From an uncultured Candidatus Saccharimonas sp. (GTDB lineage: Bacteria > Patescibacteriota > Saccharimonadia > Saccharimonadales > Saccharimonadaceae): a DNA stretch of 64,000 nucleotides. The notes below the pieces were generated by a model. That model did no database searches and was not told the origin of the DNA. It worked only from the letters and a program-made list of their open reading frames with translations. The position numbers were made by a program, and so were the translations under genes. The stretch covers positions 29,425 to 93,424 of the forward strand of contig CAYOUQ010000001.1 in NCBI GenBank assembly GCA_964407205.1, written 5' to 3'. This document shows positions 19,468-62,606 of this stretch, one piece after another; position 1 is the stretch's first letter, and the number at the start of each line of letters is the position of its first letter.

Positions 19468-20691
19468 ATGAATCTTGTTATACTTGGTAGACAACCAGCT
19501 CTTGGATTGGCTGAACTTGAACGAGTTTATGGCAGTAAAAACGTTAACCCTATTAATAACACGTCAGCATTAATATGCCATGATTCTATTGATATACAAA
19601 AGCTTGGCGGTATTCTAAAATCTGGTCGTATCATTGAAAATATTTCTGGGAAAGACTGGCGCGAAGTTAGCGATAAGATTGTACGCTATTATACGAACCT
19701 TTGGAGTGCATATAAGGGCAAGATCACATTGGGTCTTAGCGTCTACAGCCTACCTGTCAGCACCCGCGATATTCAAAAAATTGGTATTATTATCAAACAG
19801 CGACTTAAAAACTCTGGCGCCAGCATACGTCTAATCCCTAACATTGACCCGGCTTTATCAACTGCCACCTCCCATCACAATAAGTTAGGCCTAAGTCCAA
19901 ATAAATTCGAATTAATTATTGTTAAAACTGATTCTGGCGACATTATTGTCGCCGAAAGCACTGGTTCACAAAATATTACAGCCTATGCCAACCGCGACCA
20001 AGCACGACCAAAACGCGACGCCTTTGTTGGCATGTTGCCTCCAAAACTCGCCCAAATTATGATAAATCTGGCCGTCGGAAACTCGCTAAGCACAAGAGCC
20101 GCTGACGTAATATCCAAAAGTGATCCAAAAGGTGAACTTGCCATCAAACCAGTCATTCTAGACCCTTTTTGTGGCACCGGCGTAATTTTACAAGAAGCGG
20201 CATTAATGGGCTATTCGGTTTATGGCACGGATTTATCAGAAAAGATGATTAGATACAGTCGCGACAATCTTAATTGGCTGGCAGATAGCCATAATATCCA
20301 ATTCGAATGGTACTTACACGAAGGCGACGCCATGACGACCAAATGGCGACAGCCTATTAACGCAGTCGTGTGCGAGTCATACTTGGGACAGCCATTTTCT
20401 GCCCCTCCATCACCTTCCAAGTTGAATGAGGTTGTCGAAAATTGTAATCACATTATCACTGAGTTTTTGCGTAACCTGCGCGACCAAATCGAACCCGGCA
20501 CACCTATCTGCATCGCCATTCCGGCTTGGCGCGACCGAACCGGCAAATTTACCCACCTGCCTATCGTCGGCAATGTTGCCAGATATGGCTATAGGCCACA
20601 TGAATTTATGACCGTCTCTCAAAACAGCCTTTTGTATTATCGATCTGACCAAGTTGTTGCCCGAGAGCTGCTAGTTTTAACAAAAGTATAA
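19468..20691 (+). CDS. Putative RNA (tRNA guanine-N2, Trm11/Trm14-like) methyltransferase
   Basis: C-terminal ILDPFCGTGVILQEAALMG (motif I) and a DPPY-like region. The N-terminal half may be THUMP-like. Confidence 0.65.
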   Translation: MNLVILGRQPALGLAELERVYGSKNVNPINNTSALICHDSIDIQKLGGILKSGRIIENISGKDWREVSDKIVRYYTNLWSAYKGKITLGLSVYSLPVSTRDIQKIGIIIKQRLKNSGASIRLIPNIDPALSTATSHHNKLGLSPNKFELIIVKTDSGDIIVAESTGSQNITAYANRDQARPKRDAFVGMLPPKLAQIMINLAVGNSLSTRAADVISKSDPKGELAIKPVILDPFCGTGVILQEAALMGYSVYGTDLSEKMIRYSRDNLNWLADSHNIQFEWYLHEGDAMTTKWRQPINAVVCESYLGQPFSAPPSPSKLNEVVENCNHIITEFLRNLRDQIEPGTPICIAIPAWRDRTGKFTHLPIVGNVARYGYRPHEFMTVSQNSLLYYRSDQVVARELLVLTKV

Positions 20692-33418: not shown

Positions 33419-33787
33419 CTATTTACGCCTTAATCCGCGTTTAATCCTATTTAATATGCGTCGACTGCCAATATGTGGAACGACCGATTGTTTATACTCG
33501 CGAAGCTGGGCCATAATTTTACGTTCAATAATATCAATCGCAGCAAACATATTACCAGTCGTATCTTTGGCGGTAATAGCCTTGTTTGGGACGTTTAGTT
33601 TTATTTCGGCCTGATATTTGTTCCCATGAGCATGATTAACCTGTTCAAGTATGACTTCTGCTGATACGGTTTTTCTGGCATGTTTAGGTAAATACCTATC
33701 CAGCCTACCGACCTTTCTGGTCACATATTTATGAGTGTTTTCGTCGATTTCGTAGGCGATTCCAGTAACCTGAATCTGTGTTATCAT
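33419..33787 (-). CDS. hpf: Ribosome hibernation promoting factor / RaiA family (short form)
   Basis: 122-aa beta-alpha-beta-beta-beta-alpha-type sequence (ITQIQVTGIAYEIDENTHKYVTRKVGRLDRYL...MFAAIDIIERK). Conserved position upstream of secA. Confidence 0.8.
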   Translation of the reverse strand: MITQIQVTGIAYEIDENTHKYVTRKVGRLDRYLPKHARKTVSAEVILEQVNHAHGNKYQAEIKLNVPNKAITAKDTTGNMFAAIDIIERKIMAQLREYKQSVVPHIGSRRILNRIKRGLRRK

Positions 33788-33849
33788 TTGTCCTCCTGGT
33801 TAGTTGGTACATCTTAATTATAGCAAATTCTAGTTTGTCCAAGAATAAA

Positions 33850-33881
33850 AAACATTAATAAAGGGCAGCAAGTGCTGCCCC
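33850..33881 (-). terminator. Terminator after the 207-aa orphan gene
   Basis: On the minus strand: GGGCAGC-acuu-GCUGCCC followed by UUUAUUAAUGUUUUUU. Confidence 0.65.
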
Positions 33882-33894
33882 ATGTTGGTATATG

Positions 33895-34518
33895 CTAGTC
33901 TATGCCGTGGCCGGATCTACCGAGAAGATAGTTCGCAATAATAATCGAGTTATACATGGACATCTGCGGTACTTTCAGTTGAAAAAACATATCCTTATTA
34001 ATCATTTGAGATATTGCGTTTTTAACGACACAAACGTCTTTACACATGAGTGCCCTTCCAATTGCACTTTCGCGCCTGACAATAGGCGCTGTTTTCAAAG
34101 CAAGTATAATCTCCATGGCCCGTTTTTCGATAGGAATTTGGCTAAAAACTGCATAAACGAAATATTTTGGTGTTCCAGTCAGTTTGGTAATACGATTCCA
34201 GGATTCGTTAAAATGGTTTTTCGAAAGAACAATTTCTTTCAGTGGTATGATATGCATTTCAACAGAGCTGGTCGCCTGATTAAAACAAATTTTTGCAGCG
34301 AATTGGTTAATAATACGATATTCAACCGTAACATCTGGTTTAGAGAATTGAAATGGAAAAGCCTTCCTTATGTATTCGGAGTCAACATTGTTTAATTTGA
34401 AATCTCCAAATTTTTTTCGAAGCGCTTGCGTGACCTTTTCATTGATTACCAAATGTTCTTTTACCCACTTTTCATCACACTCAGGCTGGACAGATACTAT
34501 ATTGCTCATATTTTTCAC
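33895..34518 (-). CDS. Orphan hypothetical protein (207 aa)
   Basis: Minus-strand ORF with SD GGGGGTG 7 nt upstream of the ATG and a hairpin terminator downstream. The competing plus-strand 167-aa ORF is Cys/Phe/Asn-rich, like antisense noise. No family recognised. Confidence 0.6.
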   Translation of the reverse strand: MKNMSNIVSVQPECDEKWVKEHLVINEKVTQALRKKFGDFKLNNVDSEYIRKAFPFQFSKPDVTVEYRIINQFAAKICFNQATSSVEMHIIPLKEIVLSKNHFNESWNRITKLTGTPKYFVYAVFSQIPIEKRAMEIILALKTAPIVRRESAIGRALMCKDVCVVKNAISQMINKDMFFQLKVPQMSMYNSIIIANYLLGRSGHGID

Positions 34519-34575
34519 CCCCTACACTTTACGTTCCTCCGCCCTATGAGCCAAGCGGCATAAAGTTAATATTGG

Positions 34576-34625
34576 TATTACTACCAGCTCTACCGATATA
34601 TCTATCGACAGAACTGGTAGTAATA
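34576..34625. repeat. Strong hairpin (12-bp outer stem plus 5-bp inner stem) in the leader of the 207-aa gene
   Basis: TATTACTACCAG (34576-34587) pairs with CTGGTAGTAATA (34614-34625). The inner stem is CGATA/TATCG. Confidence 0.7.
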
Positions 34626-34723
34626 TTTTTAACACGGCCAAATTGTTAATGTACGACATTGCACATCAATAGCCCCACCTGCTAATAGAGTAATATTATC
34701 ACCTTCTTTAAAAAAATCAATCA

Positions 34724-34750
34724 AATAAAAAAGCCCGTTTCGTGGGCTAG
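34724..34750 (-). terminator. Probable terminator after the DUF1874 gene
   Basis: On the minus strand: AGCCC-acgaaac-GGGCU followed by UUUUUUAUUU. Confidence 0.5.
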
Positions 34751-34849
34751 ACGGTTTTTATATCGCAAAAACTGCGGCTCAATTCTATCTGTAGAGCGAC
34801 AGGTTCGGTACTAAATTTTTTTCCTAGGTCGATAGCTAGACCACCGAGT

Positions 34850-35193
34850 CTACGCAGACAAATCGTCAATATTGACGATTCGAACGCGCCAGAACTCGAT
34901 CTTTGCCCCCTCGGGCAGTTCGGTTGCGCCTTCAGGCAGACGCGGCCCCGAATATTGGGCTACGTACAACTCGTCACCTTCGTCTAAAACGAGCGTCTGC
35001 CTGTTGATTGCGACTTCTCTGCCAAGGACGCGGGACACGACACGCGCCGTGTCGCTGTGACCGATAATGCTGATGCAGTCTTCGGGCACTGATTCGGGGA
35101 TTATCCGACGCATAGTGATACGTCTGTCAGGCGAAGGTCCATACCCTCCTCCAGCATGTTGATCGAAAACGCGTTTCCCAGATACTTTGACAT
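34850..35193 (-). pseudogene. DUF1874 (AcrIII-1/Crn2, STIV B116/YddF-like) cyclic tetra-adenylate ring nuclease gene, split by a frameshift near 35104-35115
   Basis: The ATG at 35193 (SD GGAGGTG) gives MSKYLGNAFSINMLEEGMDLRLTDVSLCVG, ending at the TAA at 35103-35101. A second frame from 35113 gives RRIIPESVPEDCISIIGHSDTARVVSRVLG...GPRLPEGATELPEGAKIEFWRV. Together these carry the DUF1874 hallmarks NAFSxNML, GHxxTA and RxxEG. Confidence 0.75.
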
Positions 35194-35347
35194 ATTATTC
35201 ACCTCCTATGGGCAATCGCCATATGTCACAGCGGTATCGGCTGAGGTTTTACCTCTTTTGGCCAACCAATTTATTTTGGTTTCGGTTTTATCCGAAGATA
35301 CTAGATTTTTTCGGTGTCTTACCACTCAAACTGATAATTTCTCATTA

Positions 35348-35534
35348 AAATGGTTCGCTTGACGCACGAACCTTGAGAGTGGTTAAACTCAGCGGCCCTA
35401 CTCTTACGGACTTAGGGGCTTTTCCGGCGGCCGGTGGGTGTTTAGAGTGGAGTCGGTTTTCCTATCTCGGTTTTACGGTGAACAAAATCACTCAACGCTA
35501 ACTCCGGTTTATATGATCGCCCGTGCAGCCAGCA
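35348..35534 (-). ncRNA. Candidate structured sRNA or 5' leader domain (family unknown)
   Basis: It starts about 7 nt after the 35541-35569 promoter and is G+C-rich, with stops in all frames. It ends in the hairpin GGUUCG-ugcgucaag-CGAACC (35372-35352) followed by AUUUUAAU. Confidence 0.3.
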
Positions 35535-35540
35535 CTGATA

Positions 35541-35569
35541 ATTATCACATCTAGTTCTGAATACGTCAA
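35541..35569 (-). promoter_or_regulatory. Sigma-70-type promoter driving the long leader or sRNA upstream of the DUF1874 gene
   Basis: On the minus strand: TTGACG (35569-35564), a 17-nt spacer, then GATAAT (35546-35541). Confidence 0.55.
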
Positions 35570-35631
35570 TTTTGTGCTTACACAATTGTATTTTACAGGG
35601 GTGGAAAAAGTAAAGTTTTGTCAATTCGGTT

Positions 35632-35660
35632 TTGACATTGTTTAATATCTGTGCTATACT
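35632..35660 (+). promoter_or_regulatory. Sigma-70-type promoter of the TrmB-like gene (predicts a leaderless mRNA)
   Basis: TTGACA (35632-35637), a 17-nt spacer, then TATACT (35655-35660). The ATG at 35668 is 7 nt after the -10 box and has no SD. Confidence 0.55.
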
Positions 35661-35667
35661 GCCAAGC

Positions 35668-36402
35668 ATGAACATCGATATATTGCTAAAAATAGGCCTT
35701 ACCGAAAGCCAAGCAAAAGGCTATTTGGCGTTAGTTGAATTTGGCCCACTAACTCCATCCGATATTGCCGACAAAACTGGCGAAGCCAGAACTAATGGAT
35801 ACGCCATATCAGATAAATTAGTCGAGTTGGGGCTAGCTCGAAGGACCAACAGTATAAAGTTAAAGATTGAGGCTGAAAATCCTACAAAAATTCGTTCATT
35901 AATATCATCTCGTCAGCAACAATTAAAAACTGTAAGTGACGAGTTTTCAGCGATTTTGCCTAGCTTTTTATCAAAATTCAGGCTTACCAGCGACCAACCG
36001 GGCGTCATAAATGCCGAAGGCGTCGAAGCGCTAAAGTTAGTCTACGACGAGATTATCGCTACAAAAAAGGACGTCTTGATATTCCCTAGCAACCATGACC
36101 GCGACGATCCAAGAATTTCTGCATTAATCGACCAACAGATTGCGAGGCAGCGCGATGCGGGAATTAAATCATTAGCGCTCATACCGGCCGATCAGTATGA
36201 CTTGGTCAAAGACCAACAAGACGGCCTATTATCTATGCGAAAACTTCCCGATGGCGTGTTCTTTGATGCTCAAATTATGGTATTTGGCAATAATATCGTG
36301 TCGACTGTATTTAGGCACGGAATTGTTAGTACTATCATCTCTAGCCCCGATACCGCTGCCACTATGCGTAATATTTTCTTTGCTATTTGGGATAGACGTT
36401 AG
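35668..36402 (+). CDS. TrmB-family winged-helix transcriptional regulator
   Basis: MNIDILLKIGLTESQAKGYLALVEFGPLTPSDIADKTGEARTNGYAISDKLVELGLA is a TrmB-type wHTH. The start is set at ATG 35668, because the ORF-track start at 35632 lies inside the predicted promoter. Confidence 0.75.
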   Translation: MNIDILLKIGLTESQAKGYLALVEFGPLTPSDIADKTGEARTNGYAISDKLVELGLARRTNSIKLKIEAENPTKIRSLISSRQQQLKTVSDEFSAILPSFLSKFRLTSDQPGVINAEGVEALKLVYDEIIATKKDVLIFPSNHDRDDPRISALIDQQIARQRDAGIKSLALIPADQYDLVKDQQDGLLSMRKLPDGVFFDAQIMVFGNNIVSTVFRHGIVSTIISSPDTAATMRNIFFAIWDRR

Positions 36403-38140
36403 TATCCAGGCCTAACCTTTCTCCAAACTTCTTGATAATTTTATTCATAAAATCTTCTGTATTAATTATGGTAGCACCATTTTGGTCCTTAAATATATCA
36501 AAAGCTTCTGCGCTATGATGGCCCAAAACAGCCTTACCGTTAATAATCTGTTCTCCCTTTTCCAACATATCACATACAAAAAAGCCTACTTTTGAAGCAT
36601 TTACATAGCCTTCTTTTGTTTCACCCTTTTGTTTTTCAACCTTTTTACTCCCAATATCCAGTGATAAGCCGTAGGTTATATCATAGTCTAATCTAATATT
36701 TAAAATATTTTCTCTATTTTCTTCTGATTGACCTTGTGGAATCATCCCCGCTGGAATTGGAATGTTAAATGCAATTCGTTGATTGGACCCAAACAACGAG
36801 TCGGCAGTCCTTAGGCCCATCCATAAACCTTCTGACTTGTCGTCAGTAGATTTGAATGATTGGCTAACAACCTGGCCATACAGCCCGTATTCTTCGTTAT
36901 TCAATGGCTGAAACTGACCAGAAACTAATGACTTAGCAACTTTTTCGCTCGCAAATCGTAAAATGTTGATTACCGAAATAGCACTCTCTATCTCTTCGCT
37001 TGACGACTCGTCACTTGAAATAACCGCCAAAAGCTCGGTCGTTCTTTTTAGCCATGCGGTATACACTGCAGTATCAAAATGGTCGACAGTGTCCTTAAAG
37101 TACTTTGAAATGTCGACGGCTGACTGACGAATACTATTGATGCTTTTAAATATCTCGAGCGCCCTTGGTTTTTCTAATTTTTCAGCGATATGTAACAGTT
37201 TATCGCCAAAATGGTCACCAAACTCAAGCGAAAGAAAAGAATTGATCAACTCGACCTTTTCACTGTCATCACCATATTCTAGAAGATGCTTTTTTAATTT
37301 GCCATACCTTGAATCATCTGCTTCAATTGCAAAATTCAAAAAACGTAACTGGCTATTTAGTGGGATTTTACTGATATCAACACCAAGTTCTGATATAAAT
37401 ATATTCTTTGTCCTCGTATTGTGAACTATTCTCAATAATCTTGAATCCTGTAGCGAAAGTCCAAAACTGTTTTCGGGTTGCCATTCTGCAACTGATGCCT
37501 CACGCCCGTTCCTGTCAAAAATTTTATTTGGGCAGCGATCGACAATATTTATCTCAGCACAAACACCTGGTGCAATTTCTGAATAGCGTGCCGTCATATA
37601 GGGAGGCGCGTTCAATATTTTATACTTTTTCATAGCCCTCTCACTTTCGTCCAACTCACTCTTAAGGTAAGATAAATAGCCATCCGCCCCATCGTTATTC
37701 AACTTTTTATAACCCTCAGACTGATCGCCAATGTTATCGCCAAAGCTTGTTCTGTTTTGAGGCTTTAATGAGTAATTTAACGCAACATTTCGCTTATGAA
37801 GTTCGTTTCTATCTCGTAAGTTCTGTACCCTACTCTTGAATATAGCCCTGAATAAAACCGGAATATCTTGTGCGTTTGAGGCGTATTCAAGTTTGTCAAC
37901 ATAATTATTAAAGCCTTCATCATCACCAGTTGTAATAAAAAAATACCCATCTCTCTCGGCAGCCATTGCTTGGTTTAATACATATACGGCTGAATCATCA
38001 TCACTATCACCATTAAAAGACTTATAATAATTCGATGCCAGTTCAGAGTCGCGCCCTATCTTCTCTTTTGCTTGTTTCTGCAGTGTATATGGCACATTCT
38101 GTCCATTATCCCCGGTTGTTTCTATTATTCTGCTCTTCAT
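36383..38140 (-). CDS. Orphan hypothetical protein (585 aa)
   Basis: Long uninterrupted ORF starting 9 nt after the serS stop. No TM segment, P-loop or other motif recognised. Its 3' end overlaps the convergent TrmB-like gene by 20 nt. Confidence 0.6.
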   Translation of the reverse strand: MKSRIIETTGDNGQNVPYTLQKQAKEKIGRDSELASNYYKSFNGDSDDDSAVYVLNQAMAAERDGYFFITTGDDEGFNNYVDKLEYASNAQDIPVLFRAIFKSRVQNLRDRNELHKRNVALNYSLKPQNRTSFGDNIGDQSEGYKKLNNDGADGYLSYLKSELDESERAMKKYKILNAPPYMTARYSEIAPGVCAEINIVDRCPNKIFDRNGREASVAEWQPENSFGLSLQDSRLLRIVHNTRTKNIFISELGVDISKIPLNSQLRFLNFAIEADDSRYGKLKKHLLEYGDDSEKVELINSFLSLEFGDHFGDKLLHIAEKLEKPRALEIFKSINSIRQSAVDISKYFKDTVDHFDTAVYTAWLKRTTELLAVISSDESSSEEIESAISVINILRFASEKVAKSLVSGQFQPLNNEEYGLYGQVVSQSFKSTDDKSEGLWMGLRTADSLFGSNQRIAFNIPIPAGMIPQGQSEENRENILNIRLDYDITYGLSLDIGSKKVEKQKGETKEGYVNASKVGFFVCDMLEKGEQIINGKAVLGHHSAEAFDIFKDQNGATIINTEDFMNKIIKKFGERLGLDTNVYPK

Positions 38141-38149
38141 TTTTCTTTT

Positions 38150-39448
38150 TTATATAATTTCTCTGTCACTTAAATATGGGCGTAATACTTCAGGTATTTT
38201 GACATGTCCATCGGCTGTTTGGTAATTCTCAATAATTGCAATCATAATTCGTCCCAGTGCAAACGCTGTGGCATCGTTAATATGGACCAGCTCAATCTTG
38301 CCCTCCTTGCGTCGAACACGAGTATTTAATCGCCTTGCCTGATAATCAGTCATATAATCAGCCGTGTGGGTTTCACAATAGTTCCTTCGCCCAGGCATCC
38401 AGGTATTCATATCCATACCGCAAGCATTGGGTTTTCCAATATCAAATGTGTTCTTTTTAATGACCTGGTATGGCAATCCAAGTTGACTTAGCATATATTC
38501 TTGAATCGCAACAAATAACTTATGCTCATTTAGCCCCTGCTCGGCAGTTGCGAAACTTTCCAGTTCCAATTTATCGAATTGATGCATCCTAAACAGCCCT
38601 TCCATATCTTTGCCATAAGTTCCAGCTTCGCGTCGGAAACTAGATGCATATCCCAAATATCGAATTGGCAGTTTTTCTTCATCAAAAATCTCTCCTGAAT
38701 GCATACTACCCAAAACATGTTCGGCACTTCCCTGTAGCCACAAATCATCGCCTTCTAATTTATAACGCTCGTCGCGCGGCTCTAATCTGTCCATCGCATC
38801 GTACATGTCGGTTCGTATCATTAATGGTGGTAAAACTGGTATAAATGGTTTTGTCGGTATGTCCAGTCCGGCTCCTTTGGCAATTTCAGCAATTTTTGAT
38901 TCGTCGCTTAGTAAATTAATCACAAACTGCACAATCGCCATCTGTAATTTCACCATATCGCCCATCACATAGGCAAATCGGCTACCAGTTACTTTTGCAG
39001 CGCGTTCCTTGTCTAGCCACCCATTAGCATTAGCAATCTCGGCATGATTTTTTGGTTCAAAGTCAAATTTTGGCAACTGTCCGACCGTTTTGATAACAAC
39101 ATTGTCTTCTTCTTTAGACCCAACCGGGACATCGTCTAGCGCCATGTTAGGAACTTTTTTCAGCAGTTTCAGATATTCATCGTCAATCTCTTTCAATTTT
39201 GGCTCATCAACGACCAATTCTTCACGAATTGCCTTGCCCTCAGCAATAACTTCGTCTGACGGCTTGCCACCTTTAGTCTTTGCAACAATTGCGTTGCGTT
39301 TTTCGCGCAGTTCATCAACTCGTGCTTGTAATTTTTTCCGCTCACTGTCTAATTTTAGTAGTGCCGCAATATCAACTTCATATCCCTTATTTTTGGCATT
39401 TTGCTGAACTTTTTCAGCATTTTCTCGAATAAATTTTATATCTAACAT
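38150..39448 (-). CDS. serS: Serine--tRNA ligase
   Basis: N-terminal coiled-coil arm (MLDIKFIRENAEKV...) and class II core (FRREAGTYGKDMEGLFRMHQFDK). Confidence 0.95.
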   Translation of the reverse strand: MLDIKFIRENAEKVQQNAKNKGYEVDIAALLKLDSERKKLQARVDELREKRNAIVAKTKGGKPSDEVIAEGKAIREELVVDEPKLKEIDDEYLKLLKKVPNMALDDVPVGSKEEDNVVIKTVGQLPKFDFEPKNHAEIANANGWLDKERAAKVTGSRFAYVMGDMVKLQMAIVQFVINLLSDESKIAEIAKGAGLDIPTKPFIPVLPPLMIRTDMYDAMDRLEPRDERYKLEGDDLWLQGSAEHVLGSMHSGEIFDEEKLPIRYLGYASSFRREAGTYGKDMEGLFRMHQFDKLELESFATAEQGLNEHKLFVAIQEYMLSQLGLPYQVIKKNTFDIGKPNACGMDMNTWMPGRRNYCETHTADYMTDYQARRLNTRVRRKEGKIELVHINDATAFALGRIMIAIIENYQTADGHVKIPEVLRPYLSDREII

Positions 39449-39471: not shown

Positions 39472-40746
39472 TTATTCTGTCCTCAATGCTTCAATTGGGT
39501 TTAATTTGGCGGCTTTTCTGGCCGGCAAGATGCCCGACACTACTGATACAACGACCAAGCCAAAAATTACAATTGCGACACTTATTGGATCAAACTCTAT
39601 TAATTTAATTTCGCCTAAGTCTAGCGCTTTACTAATAAAAGGGTTAGCGATGATGCCAGAAATGATAGCTAGGCCACTGCCAATAGCCCCACCCAAAAAG
39701 CCTATCCAAGCCGCTTCCAGTTTAAATAATCTACCAACATCACGACGCCGCATACCTAACGCCTTCATTAAACCAATTTGCTGAGTCCTTTCCAGTACAC
39801 TAATGTACTGGGTGTTAATTATCCCAAATATTGAAGTTATCACCGCCAGCGTACCAAATCCGATTAATATACCCTGCAAAACATTAATAAACTGAAAAAT
39901 AAATCCCATTAAATCTTCTGGGGTTTGAGCTTTATAACCCGCAGTGTCAATATTATTTTTTACAGTGTCAACATCATAATCGTCACCCACAGTGACGACT
40001 GCCCCTAGGTATTTGTTGTATAACGCTGTGCCGCTTTGACTGTATTCATAAATCTCTCTTAGGTTTGTTTCTGAAATCTGCATACCACTGTTCGGACTTG
40101 CTGCGAACACTGAGCTTTTCACAACACCGGTTATAGTAAAATCAAAAAGTTTTGATTCAGGGTTTGCTATGGCCGACTGTTTATCGACGGCTAGTTGAAT
40201 TTGTTGTCCAATCGAATCAGCCGCACTTTTAAATCCAAGCGTATCAACATAATCATTTGGAATAATAATCCCATTATTATCTATGCCGCTTGAATCGCCT
40301 GCAACGTACTCCAGCCGAATACCATCGTTAAATTTCTGTATTGTTGTCTGATATTTGCCACCGGCAGTATTAGTAATGTACTTGATGTTAATCGAGTATG
40401 CCGGCGAAACCTTCGCAACGCCTTCAACCTTGGCAATTTTATCAACGTCTTCTTGCGACAACAGCTTTGCCGTGTATGTGCCATATTTTATTGATGGGCC
40501 TTCAAAATATTTTTGCGGTTTTGACGGGTCATTGTTCTCATCAGGCTTTGGCTGAACAAATATACCTTTTGGGTTAGTGTTGCTTGTTATTACACTGTCT
40601 GCATAATTCCTACCACCAGCACCAACTGCCAAACTTAAGACGATAGTAAATGCACCCACACCAATTGCTAAACTAGTTAATAACGTTCTGGCCTTGGCCT
40701 GTTTTAAGCTGCGCGCCGCTCGAATAGAGATATCAACAATTTTCAT
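39472..40746 (-). CDS. MacB/FtsX-type ABC transporter permease
   Basis: 424 aa: one N-terminal TM helix, a large periplasmic-type domain, then a C-terminal FtsX-like 3-TM bundle. Confidence 0.8.
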   Translation of the reverse strand: MKIVDISIRAARSLKQAKARTLLTSLAIGVGAFTIVLSLAVGAGGRNYADSVITSNTNPKGIFVQPKPDENNDPSKPQKYFEGPSIKYGTYTAKLLSQEDVDKIAKVEGVAKVSPAYSINIKYITNTAGGKYQTTIQKFNDGIRLEYVAGDSSGIDNNGIIIPNDYVDTLGFKSAADSIGQQIQLAVDKQSAIANPESKLFDFTITGVVKSSVFAASPNSGMQISETNLREIYEYSQSGTALYNKYLGAVVTVGDDYDVDTVKNNIDTAGYKAQTPEDLMGFIFQFINVLQGILIGFGTLAVITSIFGIINTQYISVLERTQQIGLMKALGMRRRDVGRLFKLEAAWIGFLGGAIGSGLAIISGIIANPFISKALDLGEIKLIEFDPISVAIVIFGLVVVSVVSGILPARKAAKLNPIEALRTE

Positions 40747-41442: not shown

Positions 41443-43221
41443 TTAATCGTCGCCACCGCCACCATCGCCACCGCCACCATCCGAGCTACCACCTCCATCC
41501 GAACCACCAAAATCCGAGCTGCCACTATCGAACCCTGAACCCGATGAACCTACATCTGACGAGAAGTCCGAGAATGAGGAACTAAACGATCCAAAATCAA
41601 ATGTTGAACCACTAACACCGACATACCACTCGGGCGCAATGTTTGTTTCCTCGTAGTATCTTCCTAATACGCCCACCCACTCTTTCTCCTGACCAAATAA
41701 TATAGCGTATGGCAATACTCTTTCGTACAAGTGGACTAACATCGATTTATCGTTAATATCAACCGGTGTTTTTTCTGCACCCTGTGGGCTCTGTAATATT
41801 TTAATACGTTCTTCCTCGGCAACAGAAATATACAGTTTAAGTCCTAGTAAATAGTCTAGAAGTTCACGCCCTTTTGGCGACAAGAACTTCGCTTTGAATA
41901 AATTTATTAACATCATAACCGCCAAGACCAAAAACAGCTGTGGTAAACCCGGTAACACGCTGAATTCCACAGATGTCAGCCTAACACTAATCAATGCCTG
42001 GATAAACATTAGGACGCTTAATACCAACAATACGGCCCTATGGCCGGCTGGCTTTTCATAATAGCCCGCCTGCAACATCGAAAGCCCAAGATTTTTATAA
42101 ATATCTCGCAGCAATGGCATAATAGCCAAATCGGGCGCATCGGGGTCAATAATATATCTTGCACCAGCTTGTGGGCTGTTACCAAAAAGCGTAAAAACTA
42201 CAGCTTTCTCATTTTCTGATAAAGCATTTAGTGAAACGAATTCCAGACTGTATTTTCCTTTTACTGTTCCATCCTCAATTATCTTTATATTATGGCGGAC
42301 GGCTAAATCAACATACATTGCCGCCGTCCATGGTGATGGCTTGCCATAGACTTTCGATGATATTGCAATATCTGAATCTTTTGGCGGTAAATATTGGGCA
42401 ATAATTGCTTTTTTTGCTCGACCACCCTTTGATTTATTAGACAGATATACAACATATAATACAAATATTGTTATACCTGCGATAAGTGAAATAACCGAGA
42501 TATATTTTTGTATAAAATCAGCTGTGGTAACCTTATAAGGCGTAAAATAATTTGGCACGAAACCGATCACCATCGACATACTGTCACCTGGGGCTAAATC
42601 ATAAACCGTTGATGTGTATTCATTACCATTAGCTCCAATATCACAACTGGCATGTGAGCCGCTTGGACCGTAGTAACATGCAGTTTTGCCATTCAAGCCT
42701 TCGCTAATACTCGGATCAATATGAACGGTAGCCGATAGCCGATCAATTCTTCGCTCCCAGTTTGAGCCGTTAATATTCCAATAAAACTCGTCATCGTTTG
42801 TATTGCTAAAATATTTTGTAATATCTTTTTGTTGATACGTGATTACATAATGTTTAATGCCGTTCACATATACATTTAGGTCGCCAATCTTGACTGCAAG
42901 ATACCCGTTGTCTGTAACTTCTTCATATTTTAAGTCCAAGCCATCTTCGTCGGTTACCGATATTATCTGAAGATCAGTCAGGTGATGATTGTAGTAAAGC
43001 GGCAGTTTCCTTATTAATCGATGTGATTGATCCTGCGCAAATTCGGCTGTAATATTTTCTATTACTTTCATCGTCGAGCGGCCGTCGGCATCCTTCGAGA
43101 TATAATATTCAGACCGAAAATCTCGAACGACCATCTCGCTGACAGTTGCCCATGCTAAGTTAGTAAAAAACGCGCTACATGCAATTGATGCAGCTATAAC
43201 CCCAAATATAAACTTCTTCAT
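41443..43221 (-). CDS. DUF2207-like membrane protein with Gly/Ser/Asp-rich C-terminal tail
   Basis: Signal peptide, an extracytoplasmic N-domain, central TM helices, and a tail ending GSSDGGGGDGGGGDD. The DUF2207 layout is recalled from the family description. Confidence 0.55.
   Translation of the reverse strand: MKKFIFGVIAASIACSAFFTNLAWATVSEMVVRDFRSEYYISKDADGRSTMKVIENITAEFAQDQSHRLIRKLPLYYNHHLTDLQIISVTDEDGLDLKYEEVTDNGYLAVKIGDLNVYVNGIKHYVITYQQKDITKYFSNTNDDEFYWNINGSNWERRIDRLSATVHIDPSISEGLNGKTACYYGPSGSHASCDIGANGNEYTSTVYDLAPGDSMSMVIGFVPNYFTPYKVTTADFIQKYISVISLIAGITIFVLYVVYLSNKSKGGRAKKAIIAQYLPPKDSDIAISSKVYGKPSPWTAAMYVDLAVRHNIKIIEDGTVKGKYSLEFVSLNALSENEKAVVFTLFGNSPQAGARYIIDPDAPDLAIMPLLRDIYKNLGLSMLQAGYYEKPAGHRAVLLVLSVLMFIQALISVRLTSVEFSVLPGLPQLFLVLAVMMLINLFKAKFLSPKGRELLDYLLGLKLYISVAEEERIKILQSPQGAEKTPVDINDKSMLVHLYERVLPYAILFGQEKEWVGVLGRYYEETNIAPEWYVGVSGSTFDFGSFSSSFSDFSSDVGSSGSGFDSGSSDFGGSDGGGSSDGGGGDGGGGDD
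41452..41560 (-). repeat. Low-complexity coding repeat (GGx/GAT/AGC codons) encoding the Gly/Ser/Asp tail of the DUF2207-like protein
   Basis: Tandem gccaccgccacc-type units on the plus strand. They translate to SGSGFDSGSSDFGGSDGGGSSDGGGGDGGGGDD. Confidence 0.8.
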
Positions 43222-55276: not shown

Positions 55277-57943
55277 ATGACCAAAACAAAACACACATGG
55301 CTATTCCGCGAAGGTAACGCTAGCATGAAAGACGAATTAGGCGGCAAAGGCGCTAACCTTGCCGAGATGACCAACATCGGCCTACCTGTCCCAGCCGGCT
55401 TTACTATCACCACAATGACCTGTAACGAATATACCGATTTGGGCGAAAAACTACCCGAAGGATTAATGGATGAAGTCAAAGTTGCCCTGGCCGACGTCGA
55501 GAAACAAATGGGTAAAAAACTTGGCGATACTACCAACCCACTTCTAGTTTCTGTCCGATCAGGCGCAAAATTCTCGATGCCAGGCATGATGGATACCGTT
55601 TTAAACCTTGGGCTTAACGACGAAACCGTCGAATCATTAGCTAAAAAGACTAACAACCCACGCATGGCCTATGATTCATACCGTCGCTTCCTGATGATGC
55701 TTTGTGATGTTGCCTATGCCGATGGCAAAAATAAACTTGCCAAACACGATTTTGAACACATTTTTTACGAATTAAAAGAAAAGCTTGGCGCTAAAAGCGA
55801 TGTTGACGTCAATGTTGATGGCCTAAAAGAATTAGTTAAACTGTACAAAGACCATATCAAAAAGCAACTTGGCCGCGAATTCCCCCAAGACGTCTTTGTT
55901 CAACTTCAGGACGCCATCGAAGCCGTCTTTAAATCATGGAATAACGATCGCGCAAAAGTTTATCGCAAAAAAGAACATATCAGCGACACCCTAGGAACCG
56001 CTGTTTCAGTCCAAGCCATGGTATTTGGAAATACTGGCGATACATCGGGCACAGGTGTTGCCTTTTCTCGCGACCCTGCAACCGGAACTAATAATATCTT
56101 TGGTGAATACCTAATGAATGCCCAGGGCGAAGACGTTGTTGCTGGCGTTCGAACGCCTATGCCAATTGCTGATTTGGCTACTCAAAATCCAAAGATTTAC
56201 AAACAATTCAAAGAAATTTGTGAAAAACTGGAAAACCACTATCATGACATGCAAGACGTCGAATTTACTATCGAAAATGACATTTTGTACATATTGCAGT
56301 GTAGAATCGGTAAACGATCAGGCCAAGCTGCCGTCAAGGTTGCGGTTGACATGGTACATGAAGGCCTAATCACTAAAGAAGAAGCAATAAGTCGTGTCAC
56401 CAGCGAACAGCTTGATCAATGCCTACACCCTGTTATTAAACCTGGCACCAAATATGAGGTCTTGGCCAAGGGACTACCAGCCGGCCCAGGCGCCGCAGCC
56501 GGTATTGTCGTATTTAGTGCAAAAGTTGCTGCCGAACTTGGCAAGGGCGGCAAAGGACAGAAAGTTATTTTGGTCCGTGCCGATACCAGCCCAGACGACT
56601 TAAAAGGCATGCTTGCTGCCGAAGGTGTTTTAACCGAACGTGGGGGTATGACCTCTCACGCTGCCCTAGTCGCCCGCGGTTTCGGTATCCCAACTGTAGC
56701 TGGTTGTTCTGCAATCAAAGTTGATGAAAAGAACCACCAATTCAAAGTTGGCGACAAAATCATCAAAGAAGGCGATCCGATTTCCCTTAATGGTGGAATT
56801 GGCGAAGTTATTAATGGCAATGTCGAAGTTGTTGCCCCAGAGTTGGCTGGCGAGTTCGGCGAATTGCTTACCTGGGCAGATGAAATCCGCAAACTAAATA
56901 TTCGTACCAATGCCGACACTCCTGACGACGTAGCATTAGCAGTTAAGTTTGGCGCTGAAGGCGTTGGCTTGTGCCGCACCGAGCATATGTTCTTTGCAGC
57001 TGACCGCCGCCCAATCGTTCAGGCTATGATTATGGCAAAGACCGACGATGAACGCCAAGTAGAATTAAATAAGTTGCTTGTTTTCCAACGAAATGACTTT
57101 ATCGAAATGTTTAAAGCCCTTGATGGCCGACCAGCAACCATTCGTTTGATCGACCCACCACTTCACGAATTCTTACCAAACCTAGAAGAGTTAATCGAAA
57201 AAGTCGCTATCCAAAAAGCCAACGGTAAAGTTAATTCAGATGACGAAGTCATGCTTGAAACTGTTAGGTCTATGCACGAAATCAACCCAATGATGGGTCT
57301 GCGTGGCTGTCGACTTTCAATTGTTTTCCCGCAAATCGTTGAAATGCAAACTCGTGCCATTATCGAAGGCGCTATCGAGGCTCAAAAGTCAGGTGTTCAG
57401 GCTCATCCAGAAATAATGATTCCACTCGTTGGGCACATTAACGAGCTGAGATGGGTTCGCAAAAAACTTGATGCTTGTGCCAAAAAGGTTATCAGCGAAG
57501 CCAAGGCTAAACTGGATTACAAATTCGGCACCATGATCGAAATACCACGCGCTGCCCTGACCGCTGATCAAATTGCTACCGAAGCCGAATTCTTTAGCTT
57601 TGGTACCAACGATTTGACCCAAATGACATTTGGGTTCAGCCGCGACGATAGCGACAGGTTCTTAAAACCATACGTCGAAGATAAGATTTTGCCAGGCGAT
57701 CCATTTGAATCAATCGACACCGAAGGCGTCGGTCAATTAATGGAAACCGCTGTTAAAAAAGGCCGATCGGTTAAAAAGGACCTTAAAATGGGAATTTGTG
57801 GCGAACATGGTGGTGAAGTTGCATCTATTAACTTCTGCCACCAAATCGGCCTTAACTACGTCAGTTGTAGCCCATTCCGCGTCCCAATTGCTCGCCTAGC
57901 TGCTGCTCAAGCAGTTTTGGCTGGCAAAGAACGCGACAAATAA
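55277..57943 (+). CDS. ppdK: Pyruvate, phosphate dikinase
   Basis: 888 aa with an ATP-grasp N-domain, the phospho-His motif GGMTSHAALVARG and a C-terminal PEP-utilising TIM barrel (GICGEHGG). Confidence 0.95.
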   Translation: MTKTKHTWLFREGNASMKDELGGKGANLAEMTNIGLPVPAGFTITTMTCNEYTDLGEKLPEGLMDEVKVALADVEKQMGKKLGDTTNPLLVSVRSGAKFSMPGMMDTVLNLGLNDETVESLAKKTNNPRMAYDSYRRFLMMLCDVAYADGKNKLAKHDFEHIFYELKEKLGAKSDVDVNVDGLKELVKLYKDHIKKQLGREFPQDVFVQLQDAIEAVFKSWNNDRAKVYRKKEHISDTLGTAVSVQAMVFGNTGDTSGTGVAFSRDPATGTNNIFGEYLMNAQGEDVVAGVRTPMPIADLATQNPKIYKQFKEICEKLENHYHDMQDVEFTIENDILYILQCRIGKRSGQAAVKVAVDMVHEGLITKEEAISRVTSEQLDQCLHPVIKPGTKYEVLAKGLPAGPGAAAGIVVFSAKVAAELGKGGKGQKVILVRADTSPDDLKGMLAAEGVLTERGGMTSHAALVARGFGIPTVAGCSAIKVDEKNHQFKVGDKIIKEGDPISLNGGIGEVINGNVEVVAPELAGEFGELLTWADEIRKLNIRTNADTPDDVALAVKFGAEGVGLCRTEHMFFAADRRPIVQAMIMAKTDDERQVELNKLLVFQRNDFIEMFKALDGRPATIRLIDPPLHEFLPNLEELIEKVAIQKANGKVNSDDEVMLETVRSMHEINPMMGLRGCRLSIVFPQIVEMQTRAIIEGAIEAQKSGVQAHPEIMIPLVGHINELRWVRKKLDACAKKVISEAKAKLDYKFGTMIEIPRAALTADQIATEAEFFSFGTNDLTQMTFGFSRDDSDRFLKPYVEDKILPGDPFESIDTEGVGQLMETAVKKGRSVKKDLKMGICGEHGGEVASINFCHQIGLNYVSCSPFRVPIARLAAAQAVLAGKERDK

Positions 57944-61439: not shown

Positions 61440-62606
61440 ATGAAACGGCGTGCTATTTTTATCTGTCCGTTAATAATTGCTTTAGTAGGTCTTGGCATCT
61501 ACGCGATTCTGTCAAAGCTACCAAATCCCACCAAGTCAGCCGATACATCTGTTACAGAACCAGTTCCGCTGGATGCCGATACGGTCTTTGTAAATCAACA
61601 GCTGGACAAAATGACTTTGCGCCAAAAAGTGTCCAGTTTATTCATTCTGCACACACAGGGATACGACGCTTCGGCTTTGAGCACATATTTGCAAACCTAC
61701 CAACCCAGCGGGCTGATATTCATGTCCGACAATATTCCACCAAGTCTTGAAGAGATGACGGCGTTGACCACCCAGTTGCAGACAAATGCTGGCCTGCCTT
61801 ATTTGTTCGCCATTGACGGCGAAGGTGGCGTCGTTAATCGATTGCGCAGTGACGACACGTTTTTATCGGCGGCTGAATTAAAGTCTTTGCCGCCAACCGA
61901 AACCGAAACCGCGTTTCGCCAACGCTCACAGTTGCTAAAAACGGCTGGTATTAACCTGAACTTTGGCATCGTGGCTGACGTTAACGGCAACCCGGATTCG
62001 TTTATTTATGATCGGACATTCGGTGGCGACGCTGCGCAAGTCAGTGACCATGTCGCCGCTGCAGTGCGCGGAGCAGACGGTCTGACACTTTCAACCCTAA
62101 AGCACTTCCCTGGACATGGCGAGACTTCTGATGACTCCCATTTTTTGACCCCAACAACCGATACGTCAATTAATAATTGGCGAACAAACGATAATCCGCC
62201 ATTTGCCAGCGGCATTGATGCTGGCGCTGAATTTGTCATGTTTGGGCATTTAATTTACAGCTCTGTTGACCCATTACCGGCCAGTCTATCTGCAAAATGG
62301 CATCGGATTTTGACCGGTACTAACAAGTTTTATGGCATTTCTATTACCGACGATATGATAATGTTGCAACAAACTGGCGATCCAGCTTACGCCGACCCAG
62401 TCGCTAACGCTGTCAGCGCCATTAATGCCGGCAACACCATGTTGTTATATGTTATTGACCCGAATAGTGATGTTGGCAATATCGATCCAAACACTTTAAT
62501 TGATGGAATCGAAACAGCGGTAAATGATGGCACGATTCCAATTGAAATAATAACTAATAACTGTCGCAAAATCTTGTTGTTGCGACGACAGCTAGTTAAA
62601 GATTAA
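61440..62606 (+). CDS. Glycoside hydrolase family 3 (NagZ-like beta-N-acetylhexosaminidase), membrane anchored or secreted
   Basis: N-terminal TM/signal segment and the KHFPGHGETSDDSH catalytic region typical of GH3 NagZ-type enzymes. Confidence 0.8.
   Translation: MKRRAIFICPLIIALVGLGIYAILSKLPNPTKSADTSVTEPVPLDADTVFVNQQLDKMTLRQKVSSLFILHTQGYDASALSTYLQTYQPSGLIFMSDNIPPSLEEMTALTTQLQTNAGLPYLFAIDGEGGVVNRLRSDDTFLSAAELKSLPPTETETAFRQRSQLLKTAGINLNFGIVADVNGNPDSFIYDRTFGGDAAQVSDHVAAAVRGADGLTLSTLKHFPGHGETSDDSHFLTPTTDTSINNWRTNDNPPFASGIDAGAEFVMFGHLIYSSVDPLPASLSAKWHRILTGTNKFYGISITDDMIMLQQTGDPAYADPVANAVSAINAGNTMLLYVIDPNSDVGNIDPNTLIDGIETAVNDGTIPIEIITNNCRKILLLRRQLVKD

Follow-up and report, generated by a model that had tools for sequence, protein, structure and literature searches.

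The window examined here is a 64,000-nt stretch of Candidatus Saccharimonas sp. (assembly GCA_964407205.1, contig CAYOUQ010000001.1, positions 29,425-93,424), in which almost all genes lie on the minus strand. Between two of its conserved genes, serS and hpf, is an islet of 4.3 kb (~33,850-38,149) that contains a gene for a 585-amino-acid (aa) protein, here called X, a gene for a TrmB-type winged helix-turn-helix (wHTH) regulator, a promoter region that reads in both directions, a split gene of the DUF1874 ring-nuclease family and an orphan gene, orf207. A first-pass annotation of this DNA had placed five elements between hpf and serS, and all five are present with small changes of coordinates only. 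From serS to hpf, the features of the islet and its borders are as follows, with open reading frame abbreviated as ORF and Shine-Dalgarno sequence as SD.

38150-39448: serS, conserved flank of the islet.
36383-38140, minus strand: ORF of X, 585 aa, starting 9 nt past the serS stop codon.
35668-36402, plus strand: TrmB-like wHTH regulator, 244 aa (PF01978), with an architecture like that of TrmBL2.
35632-35660, plus strand: TrmB promoter TTGACA-17-TGcTATACT from a pattern scan, with the ATG 7 nt further on.
35619-35637: palindrome TGTCAA-N7-TTGACA, putative TrmB operator, the right half of which is the -35 of the TrmB promoter.
35541-35569, minus strand: outward (cargo) promoter TTGACG-17-GATAAT from a pattern scan.
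35345-35535, minus strand: conserved element of ~190 nt that opens just past the outward -10 and closes with a terminator hairpin (35352-35372).
35194-35667: non-coding stretch of 474 nt without a credible ORF.
35101-35193, minus strand: N-terminal piece of DUF1874, 30 aa, in the other frame, with its start at 35193 and the SD GGAGGTG at 35200-35206.
34850-35113, minus strand: C-terminal piece of DUF1874, 87 aa (PF08960, E = 3.8e-8).
34732-34754: two-way terminator-like hairpin between DUF1874 and orf207, conserved in the sister assembly GCA_964498955.1 (L106).
34576-34625: long imperfect hairpin in the putative 5' leader of orf207, an inverted repeat with 23-nt arms that are 87% complementary.
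33895-34518, minus strand: orf207, 207 aa from GTG, a cargo gene with its own transcription unit.
33862-33881, minus strand: terminator-like hairpin behind orf207 from a pattern scan.
33817-33825, minus strand: extended -10 (TGCTATAAT) of hpf's own promoter, kept at the hpf-side border of the islet.
33419-33787: hpf, conserved flank of the islet.

The arrangement of serS and hpf in related genomes identifies the islet as an insertion. The loci around SerS were fetched from 80 Saccharibacteria and their neighbouring genes mapped, with 76 loci entering the count of serS-hpf gaps. In 51 of the 76, no more than 150 nt separate the two genes, and among these is the closest relative (L001; SerS 88% identical), with an intergenic region of 83 nt; the 4.3 kb found here is therefore an insertion. 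A counterpart of the extended -10 of hpf is found by alignment between serS and hpf in L001 and other relatives, directly behind serS, and the hpf leader is likewise kept at the islet border. The insertion thus took place between the serS stop codon and the hpf promoter, and the synteny comparison bears out the first-pass view of the islet as an indel, an accessory insertion between conserved genes. The first-pass annotation had named conservation of the gene set at this locus in distant relatives, with native composition, as evidence against its view. This is half borne out: X and TrmB, natively composed, also stand beside serS in L012 and L081, which are more distant relatives, but most relatives, L001 included, do not have the pair. 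The search for flanking direct repeats or att sites returned only short pairs at chance level, the tRNA/tmRNA scan found none, and no integrase, phage or conjugation genes were found in the islet using Pfam, PADLOC and PHROGs.

The same gap is filled in other ways in 23 other genomes (occupied gaps include L004, L005, L008, L018-L025, L033, L040, L042, L048, L052 and L055). The fillings comprise pyrD (5 genomes), an rve-type insertion sequence (L005), a kinase/zeta-toxin-like gene, a laccase-domain gene beside a pilin-like gene, and several ORFans. Across Saccharibacteria, gene order is repeatedly broken at the serS-hpf junction, a general break point.

The genes of X and the TrmB-like regulator form a constant pair. 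In all 12 informative loci, meaning those in which the reachable DNA extends past the 3' end of X (the window, L012, L081, L082, L083, L094, L095, L096, L098, L099, L103 and L105), a TrmB-like gene converges on X with an overlap of 4 to ~90 nt. The overlap in the window is 20 nt (36383-36402), as had been annotated. X is always preceded on its strand by a housekeeping gene, namely serS in three loci and elsewhere argS, ileS (with a 283-aa ORF between), map, mscL, polA or a DNA-alkylation repair gene. Very different subtypes of the pair can occupy one site: L081 and L012 are 95.5% identical in SerS and 76% identical over ~500 nt of non-coding leader, yet identity falls to 34% for TrmB and, over a stretch of 142 aa, to 27% for X. 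The L012 pair instead resembles that of L096, which lies behind argS (TrmB 60%, X 48%), and the window pair resembles those of L081 and L098, the latter behind polA (TrmB 67-72%, X 34-40%). Thus, X and TrmB move and diverge together, and differing subtypes hold one site in sister genomes.

The assignment of the regulator to the TrmB type was upheld by a match to PF01978 above the cut-off (E = 2e-9; 37.4 bits against 25.6) over residues 19-81 of the ORF read from TTG. The N-termini of homologs indicate that the start is ATG 35668 and not TTG 35632. The regulator shares with archaeal TrmB/TrmBL2 (PF01978; 5BQT, 5BOX) the winged helix, a similar length, a palindromic candidate operator and a weak alignment to TrmBL2 (5BQT, residues 14-173). 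It differs from them in being bacterial and in falling far below the cut-offs of the NCBIfam TrmB/TrmBL1 equivalogs (21.8 and 12 bits against 500 and 650, in the N-terminal region only), and the sugar-binding C-terminal domain of TrmB proper was not detected in it. To our knowledge, a strict convergent and overlapping partner gene is not a described trait of TrmB family members. Codon-position identities to the gene of the sister genome L106 are.93/.95/.60, which points to purifying selection on the TrmB gene.

The non-coding DNA between the regulator and DUF1874 had been described as ~470 nt with back-to-back consensus promoters, and in the 474 nt measured here both promoters are matched and conserved. 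Both hexamers of the outward promoter are conserved in the window, L081, L012, L083, L096 and L098, and the layout, with a wHTH regulator beside promoters reading outward to DUF1874, is the one originally proposed. Upstream of TrmB, five loci share the palindrome, the extended -10, an ATG 7-8 nt past the -10, and an ACAGrGGTG box; in the same five the -35 of the outward promoter is another TGTCAA(T) half-site. The short distance from the -10 to the ATG implies that the TrmB mRNA is probably leaderless. The palindrome has a single match in the 64-kb window and lies at -48/-49 from the TrmB ATG in 5/5 loci examined, with TTTACA as its right half in one of them. It is this fixed position across loci, and not its uniqueness, that makes the palindrome a putative operator. 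A 23-nt stretch inside orf207 (34374-34396) is 83% identical to 35624-35646, which is the right half of the TrmB operator/promoter (ATTCGGnnTnnACATTGTTTAAT); this likeness may be due to chance.

On the far side of the outward promoter, conservation ends and turnover begins. Each locus has 350-850 nt of non-coding DNA there, followed by 2-5 genes without a Pfam match and then by housekeeping genes. The cargo genes of different loci have no mutual similarity, and PADLOC returned one marginal match only (E = 5e-4) among the cargo ORFans of the other loci. The exchange of cargo is seen most directly in L106 and L107. Over the stretch that begins 137 nt before the TrmB ATG and continues through TrmB into X, the two have 96.5% identity, whereas beyond the outward promoter, where the homology breaks, they are unrelated. 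The sister assembly L106 carries X, TrmB, the same leader as the window and an intact 114-aa DUF1874 (P0272); L107 carries another leader and a 279-aa ORFan, and then the hpf promoter.

The outward transcripts of other loci open with a hairpin that bears UGAGAGG in or near its loop, just past the -10 (L081 3777-4350; L012 13954-14640; L096 3816-4240; L083 5606-6110; L099 3690-4540). Most of these leaders have a second copy downstream, and a long hairpin is also present in L081, L012 and L096. The outer stems differ in sequence from locus to locus with their pairing kept, and the motif is absent from the window leader. Single folds show hairpins, and RNAalifold on a MAFFT alignment of six promoter-proximal leaders gave no consensus.

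The cargo of the window includes the DUF1874 gene, whose two pieces had been recognised as one split gene. This is confirmed by 676 homologs, the best of which are 50-60% identical and cover both pieces, and by the intact L106 copy, against which the frame is broken by a 1-nt deletion near 35,113-35,124. The rejoined protein (114 aa) scores 37.2 bits against PF08960, compared with 33.8 for the C-terminal piece and a cut-off of 26, and DUF1874 matches phrog_5063 at 1e-15. Residues 3-91 of the rejoined protein align with SIRV1 gp29 at E = 1e-8 (2X4I; 6SCF is the H47A mutant with cyclic tetra-adenylate, cA4). The catalytic histidine is kept, with the His of IIGHSDT aligning to the H of SIGHDST in 2X4I and to Ala in 6SCF. 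DUF1874 is also 38.7% identical to a protein of phage THSA-485A. This phage protein, which has been shown to block cA4 signalling, and SIRV1 gp29 define AcrIII-1, a family in which His-47 is absolutely conserved (10.1101/778746). Between the window and L106, codon-position identities of DUF1874 are.89/.98/.70, which points to purifying selection until recently.

As judged from its sequence, the window gene is a new, broken member of the known AcrIII-1/Crn2 family, for which cA4 cleavage is predicted at most. It resembles the family in that the rejoined protein aligns end to end with family members, passes the PF08960 cut-off and keeps the histidine equivalent to His-47 of gp29. Unlike the family ORF, which is intact at about 100-140 aa, its frame is broken; no type III CRISPR locus or virus context is visible for it in the 64-kb window, and it lies as cargo beside the unrelated X-TrmB pair, with its own ~190-nt element before the gene. 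No CRISPR-like repeats, CRISPR array, cas genes or cyclase were found in the window (51 ORFs scanned). The closest DUF1874 homologs (L088 6001-6438; L092 6001-6420) are solitary and stand beside housekeeping genes such as thrS. The solitary homologs (proteins P0007, P0009, P0010, P0013 and P0024) have upstream regions of 240-280 nt with strong promoters of their own. Many close homologs have a Cys-rich C-terminal extension, which the window copy does not have.

The DUF1874 gene is foreign in composition. Its G+C content at third codon positions (GC3) is 0.65, compared with 0.374 +/- 0.035 for 30 window genes, and its codon-usage score is outside the native range; X, TrmB and orf207 have native composition. 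The 300-nt G+C peak of 0.547 at 34,801 is the highest in the window (mean 0.408, standard deviation 0.041). The first-pass annotation had described the whole of 34.85-35.55 kb as G+C-richer; the enrichment is real, but at fine scale it is limited to 34,850-35,160 and 35,360-35,480. The blastn search of the G+C-rich segment against phage genomes returned no match. Two more G+C-rich patches, at 56401-56700 and 61651-62250, reach 0.50-0.54 in 300-nt windows, comparable to the DUF1874 peak.

The ~190-nt element that precedes DUF1874 is 92% identical between the window and L106, while third codon positions reach 60-70% and the remaining non-coding DNA 73-78%. Two of its 15 differences are compensatory within predicted stems, and the z-score of its fold is -2.3. 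The element is a candidate for a structured leader or small RNA of a DUF1874 cassette. Given that the element and the gene are both present in the window and in L106, both absent from L107, and both raised in G+C, they are treated as one cassette. A cmscan of 35,194-35,600 with Rfam 15 gave no family even at E <= 10. Rfam searches of the islet, the whole window and three related loci gave nothing, with no family at gathering score in the window, and an exact 22-mer of the element had no match in viral contigs. A possible counterpart is the DUF1874 RNA motif (Weinberg et al., 2017), likewise a conserved multistem non-coding element before genes that include DUF1874, which recurs in consecutive intergenic regions and is, according to its authors, possibly attC-like (PMC5737381). 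The window element differs from this motif in having no Rfam 15 match, a difference to be read with the motif's inclusion in Rfam 15 being unconfirmed.

The second cargo gene, orf207, matches only itself among 5.8e9 proteins. No match was found in Pfam, PADLOC, PHROGs, NCBIfam or PDB sequences (E <= 10), and cargo genes at the other loci do not resemble it. Of the six frames, its own has the best codon score, and with GC3 native at 0.37, orf207 is probably a real gene. The start given by NCBI is ATG 34509, which yields 204 aa with GGGGGTG 6 nt upstream. Together with the hairpin at 33862-33881 and the sole self-match, this agrees with the earlier description of an orphan with its own SD and terminator. 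A loop in the protein had been likened by eye to that of CARF domains, but no CARF or SAVED profile was matched (Pfam, PADLOC and NCBIfam, E <= 0.1). Rfam gave chance miRNA-like matches only for the hairpin at 34576-34625.

Protein X had also been taken for an orphan, and a word-indexed search had indeed given three relatives only. A profile built from four sequences and searched against 1.84e9 representatives instead found 497 relatives (E <= 1e-3), of which 188 reach E <= 1e-10. The relatives have the C-terminal ~300 residues in common and differ in their N-termini; in X itself the conserved C-terminal region is ~350 aa and the N-terminal region is variable. A membrane-like segment was seen in 2/150 relatives, and E306, R338, R366, E369, R444, R455, R483, D485, D495, H542, R544 and E545 are invariant or nearly so. 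This pattern of residues suggests an enzyme, and X is suggested to be a soluble protein with an enzyme-like conserved C-terminal domain. Codon-position identities of X to the sister genome L106 are.90/.94/.60, and the gene is, like that of TrmB, under purifying selection.

No Pfam or NCBIfam domain was found in X or in 55 of its relatives, a profile search of PDB sequences was empty, and no relatives were found in IMG/VR. The AlphaFold2 model of X, from a 55-sequence alignment, has a predicted local distance difference test score (pLDDT) of 81 and a predicted template modelling score (pTM) of 0.80. It supersedes a poor model from a 4-sequence alignment (pLDDT 57.6), for which the fold search was empty. 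When the new model was searched with Foldseek, neither PDB nor BFVD yielded a fold match; the best hits had E = 0.19 with TM below 0.2 in PDB, and E = 0.013 with TM ~0.1 in BFVD.

Elsewhere, X is preceded by a promoter of its own (TTGAC-N17-TGnTAnAAT) and by an A-rich leader without SD (L081 835-941; L012 11299-11404; L094 5899-6001; L096 682-776; also L082 and L098). In the window, the A-rich leader alone remains (38141-38149), directly behind serS. Here X would be without a promoter of its own and is probably transcribed by read-through from serS.

The data show an indel, a constant X-TrmB pair, a regulatory block kept across loci, a swap of cargo, and a DUF1874 gene that is foreign in composition and frameshifted; these are accommodated, with moderate confidence, by an islet of two layers: a platform of X, TrmB and promoters, and a slot of fast-turnover cargo, inserted together between the serS stop codon and the hpf promoter. 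The platform (35,541-38,140) would consist of X, the convergent overlapping gene of a TrmBL2-like repressor and a two-way promoter block of ~135 bp. It is undescribed in the libraries and literature searched, and the literature search found nothing joining TrmB with Saccharibacteria. The repressor probably binds the TGTCAA-N7-TTGACA palindrome over its own -35, which would shut off its own leaderless mRNA, and it may also gate the outward promoter ~50 bp off. The cargo slot would lie behind the outward promoter, with a content that turns over quickly. In the window it would hold a cassette from a G+C-richer donor (the 190-nt leader with its terminator, and DUF1874) plus the independent orphan orf207. 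The exchange of cargo could equally be the result of homologous recombination between the conserved flanks, that is, the platform and hpf. The turnover and the variable N-terminus of X hint at a possible role in conflict with phages or hosts.

Several points weigh against the two-layer islet as set out here. X, TrmB, orf207 and the other cargo match no known defence or anti-defence family, DUF1874 excepted. We infer operator binding, leaderless translation and read-through from serS from the DNA sequence, and the palindrome, which has at least one match in 15/100 shuffles, is weak evidence by itself. The case for the 190-nt element is made from two sequences, of which one is interrupted by a run of Ns, and the frameshift in DUF1874 could be an assembly error.

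An unlikely, more modest explanation is that the islet consists of ordinary lineage-specific genes, with TrmB as a plain regulator of a cellular enzyme X at a common synteny break, and that it has no role in mobility or conflict. The native composition of X and TrmB, their purifying selection and their constant position among housekeeping genes agree with this, as do the lack of a match to known defence families and the presence of ordinary genes such as pyrD in the serS-hpf gap of other Saccharibacteria. However, the pair is present or absent among close relatives, two very different subtypes hold the serS site in genomes with 95.5% identical SerS, and the gene in front of one and the same subtype varies between genomes. 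X is hypervariable at its N-terminus, and the cargo is replaced beside a platform that is 96.5% identical. Ordinary genes fit poorly with such allelic replacement and cargo swap.

The first-pass annotation had offered two explanations of its own, of which the stronger, decayed cargo of a phage or an integrative and conjugative element (ICE) with an AcrIII-1 gene controlled by an Aca-like regulator, is now quite doubtful. In acr-aca operons, a helix-turn-helix (HTH) protein represses anti-CRISPR genes via inverted repeats in the acr promoter. The islet likewise has an HTH repressor, a palindrome in the promoter region and, downstream of the promoter adjoining that palindrome, a gene of an anti-defence family. 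This gene belongs to AcrIII-1, has 38.7% identity to the THSA-485A protein and is foreign in composition. An HTH repressor gating an anti-defence gene nevertheless fits the layout only. The regulator is encoded on the opposite strand and diverges from DUF1874 instead of following it in one operon; it is 244 aa long, of the TrmB type, and has a large C-terminal domain. Its invariant partner across loci (12/12) is X, the cargo consists of unrelated ORFans, and the near-identical platform of L107 bears the unrelated 279-aa gene. As for the phage or ICE origin, the islet is without phage, integrase or conjugation genes and without flanking repeats, the X family is absent from IMG/VR, X, TrmB and orf207 are native in composition, and the loci have no phage or plasmid context.

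A bolder extension of the two-layer islet, which we regard as a long shot, would make X-TrmB and its two-way promoter block a previously unrecognised platform for gene capture, or else a new conflict system, in Saccharibacteria and related bacteria with small genomes. Under gene capture, insertion of the platform behind housekeeping genes, or the swapping of cargo at the outward promoter, would be catalysed by X, and the structured elements at the head of the cargo (the 190-nt element here, the UGAGAGG hairpins elsewhere) would be sites of recombination or control. In a narrower variant, the 190-nt element would be a ligand-sensing leader that switches the ring nuclease on. Integrons and replacement-type flexible genomic islands also combine a conserved platform with exchangeable cassettes, into which a promoter reads. 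The islet is like them in its platform beside a promoter that reads into unrelated, fast-swapped genes in the break of homology at that promoter, and in the recurrent hairpins of some leaders. Unlike integrons, it has no tyrosine recombinase; X, TrmB and 55 relatives of X have no recombinase domain, and no fold match was found. Hairpins do lie between the window genes (34576-34625 and 34732-34754), and no repeated attC-like site common to the cassettes has been shown.

The other explanation offered earlier, a cyclic-oligoadenylate module working without CRISPR in which orf207 is a CARF-like sensor, X the effector and DUF1874 the off-switch, can practically be set aside, given that it draws on the family of DUF1874 and the by-eye likeness of the orf207 loop and on nothing else, whereas orf207 and X have no CARF, SAVED, HEPN or other match in PADLOC, Pfam or NCBIfam, X has no structural match, orf207 and (save in the sister L106) DUF1874 are missing from other X-TrmB loci, DUF1874 is no conserved component of a module and its gene is frameshifted here, and neither a cyclase nor a cas gene nor a CRISPR array was found in the window.

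The genomes of Saccharibacteria and their relatives are tiny and contain few recognisable mobile elements and defence systems, and gene gain and loss in these bacteria are poorly understood. The locus provides a repeatable case, in which sites of exchange of unrelated genes between very close relatives are flagged by a conserved pair. The X family is a defined target, with 497 relatives, a confident model, no known fold, a strictly linked repressor and a predicted operator, and it lends itself to structural and genetic study in cultivable Saccharibacteria. Moreover, a gene of the cA4 ring-nuclease family was recently functional in a lineage without type III CRISPR visible nearby.

Elsewhere in the window, PADLOC gave further matches. 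The FtsX/LolE-type permease beside serS (39472-40746) matches 'CARF_m8--CARF_LolE_TM' at profile positions 445-550 of 810, via the membrane domain only. This is the sole CARF-named match in the window, and the gene could be mislabelled as CARF by automated defence annotation. PADLOC on 51 other window ORFs matched mad2 (19468-20691, plus strand, E = 1e-13) and, in ORFs within 1-30 kb, mad3 (4e-31), mad8, KwaB (9e-14), PDC-S68 and RecD-like models; most of the mad, KwaB, PDC-S68 and RecD-like matches could be to generic ATPase or helicase domains of housekeeping genes. Finally, the 3' end of the gene at 41443-43221 contains CCA/CCG-rich short tandem repeats (41450-41525; periods of 15, 18 and 33 nt), which probably encode a Gly-rich tail.

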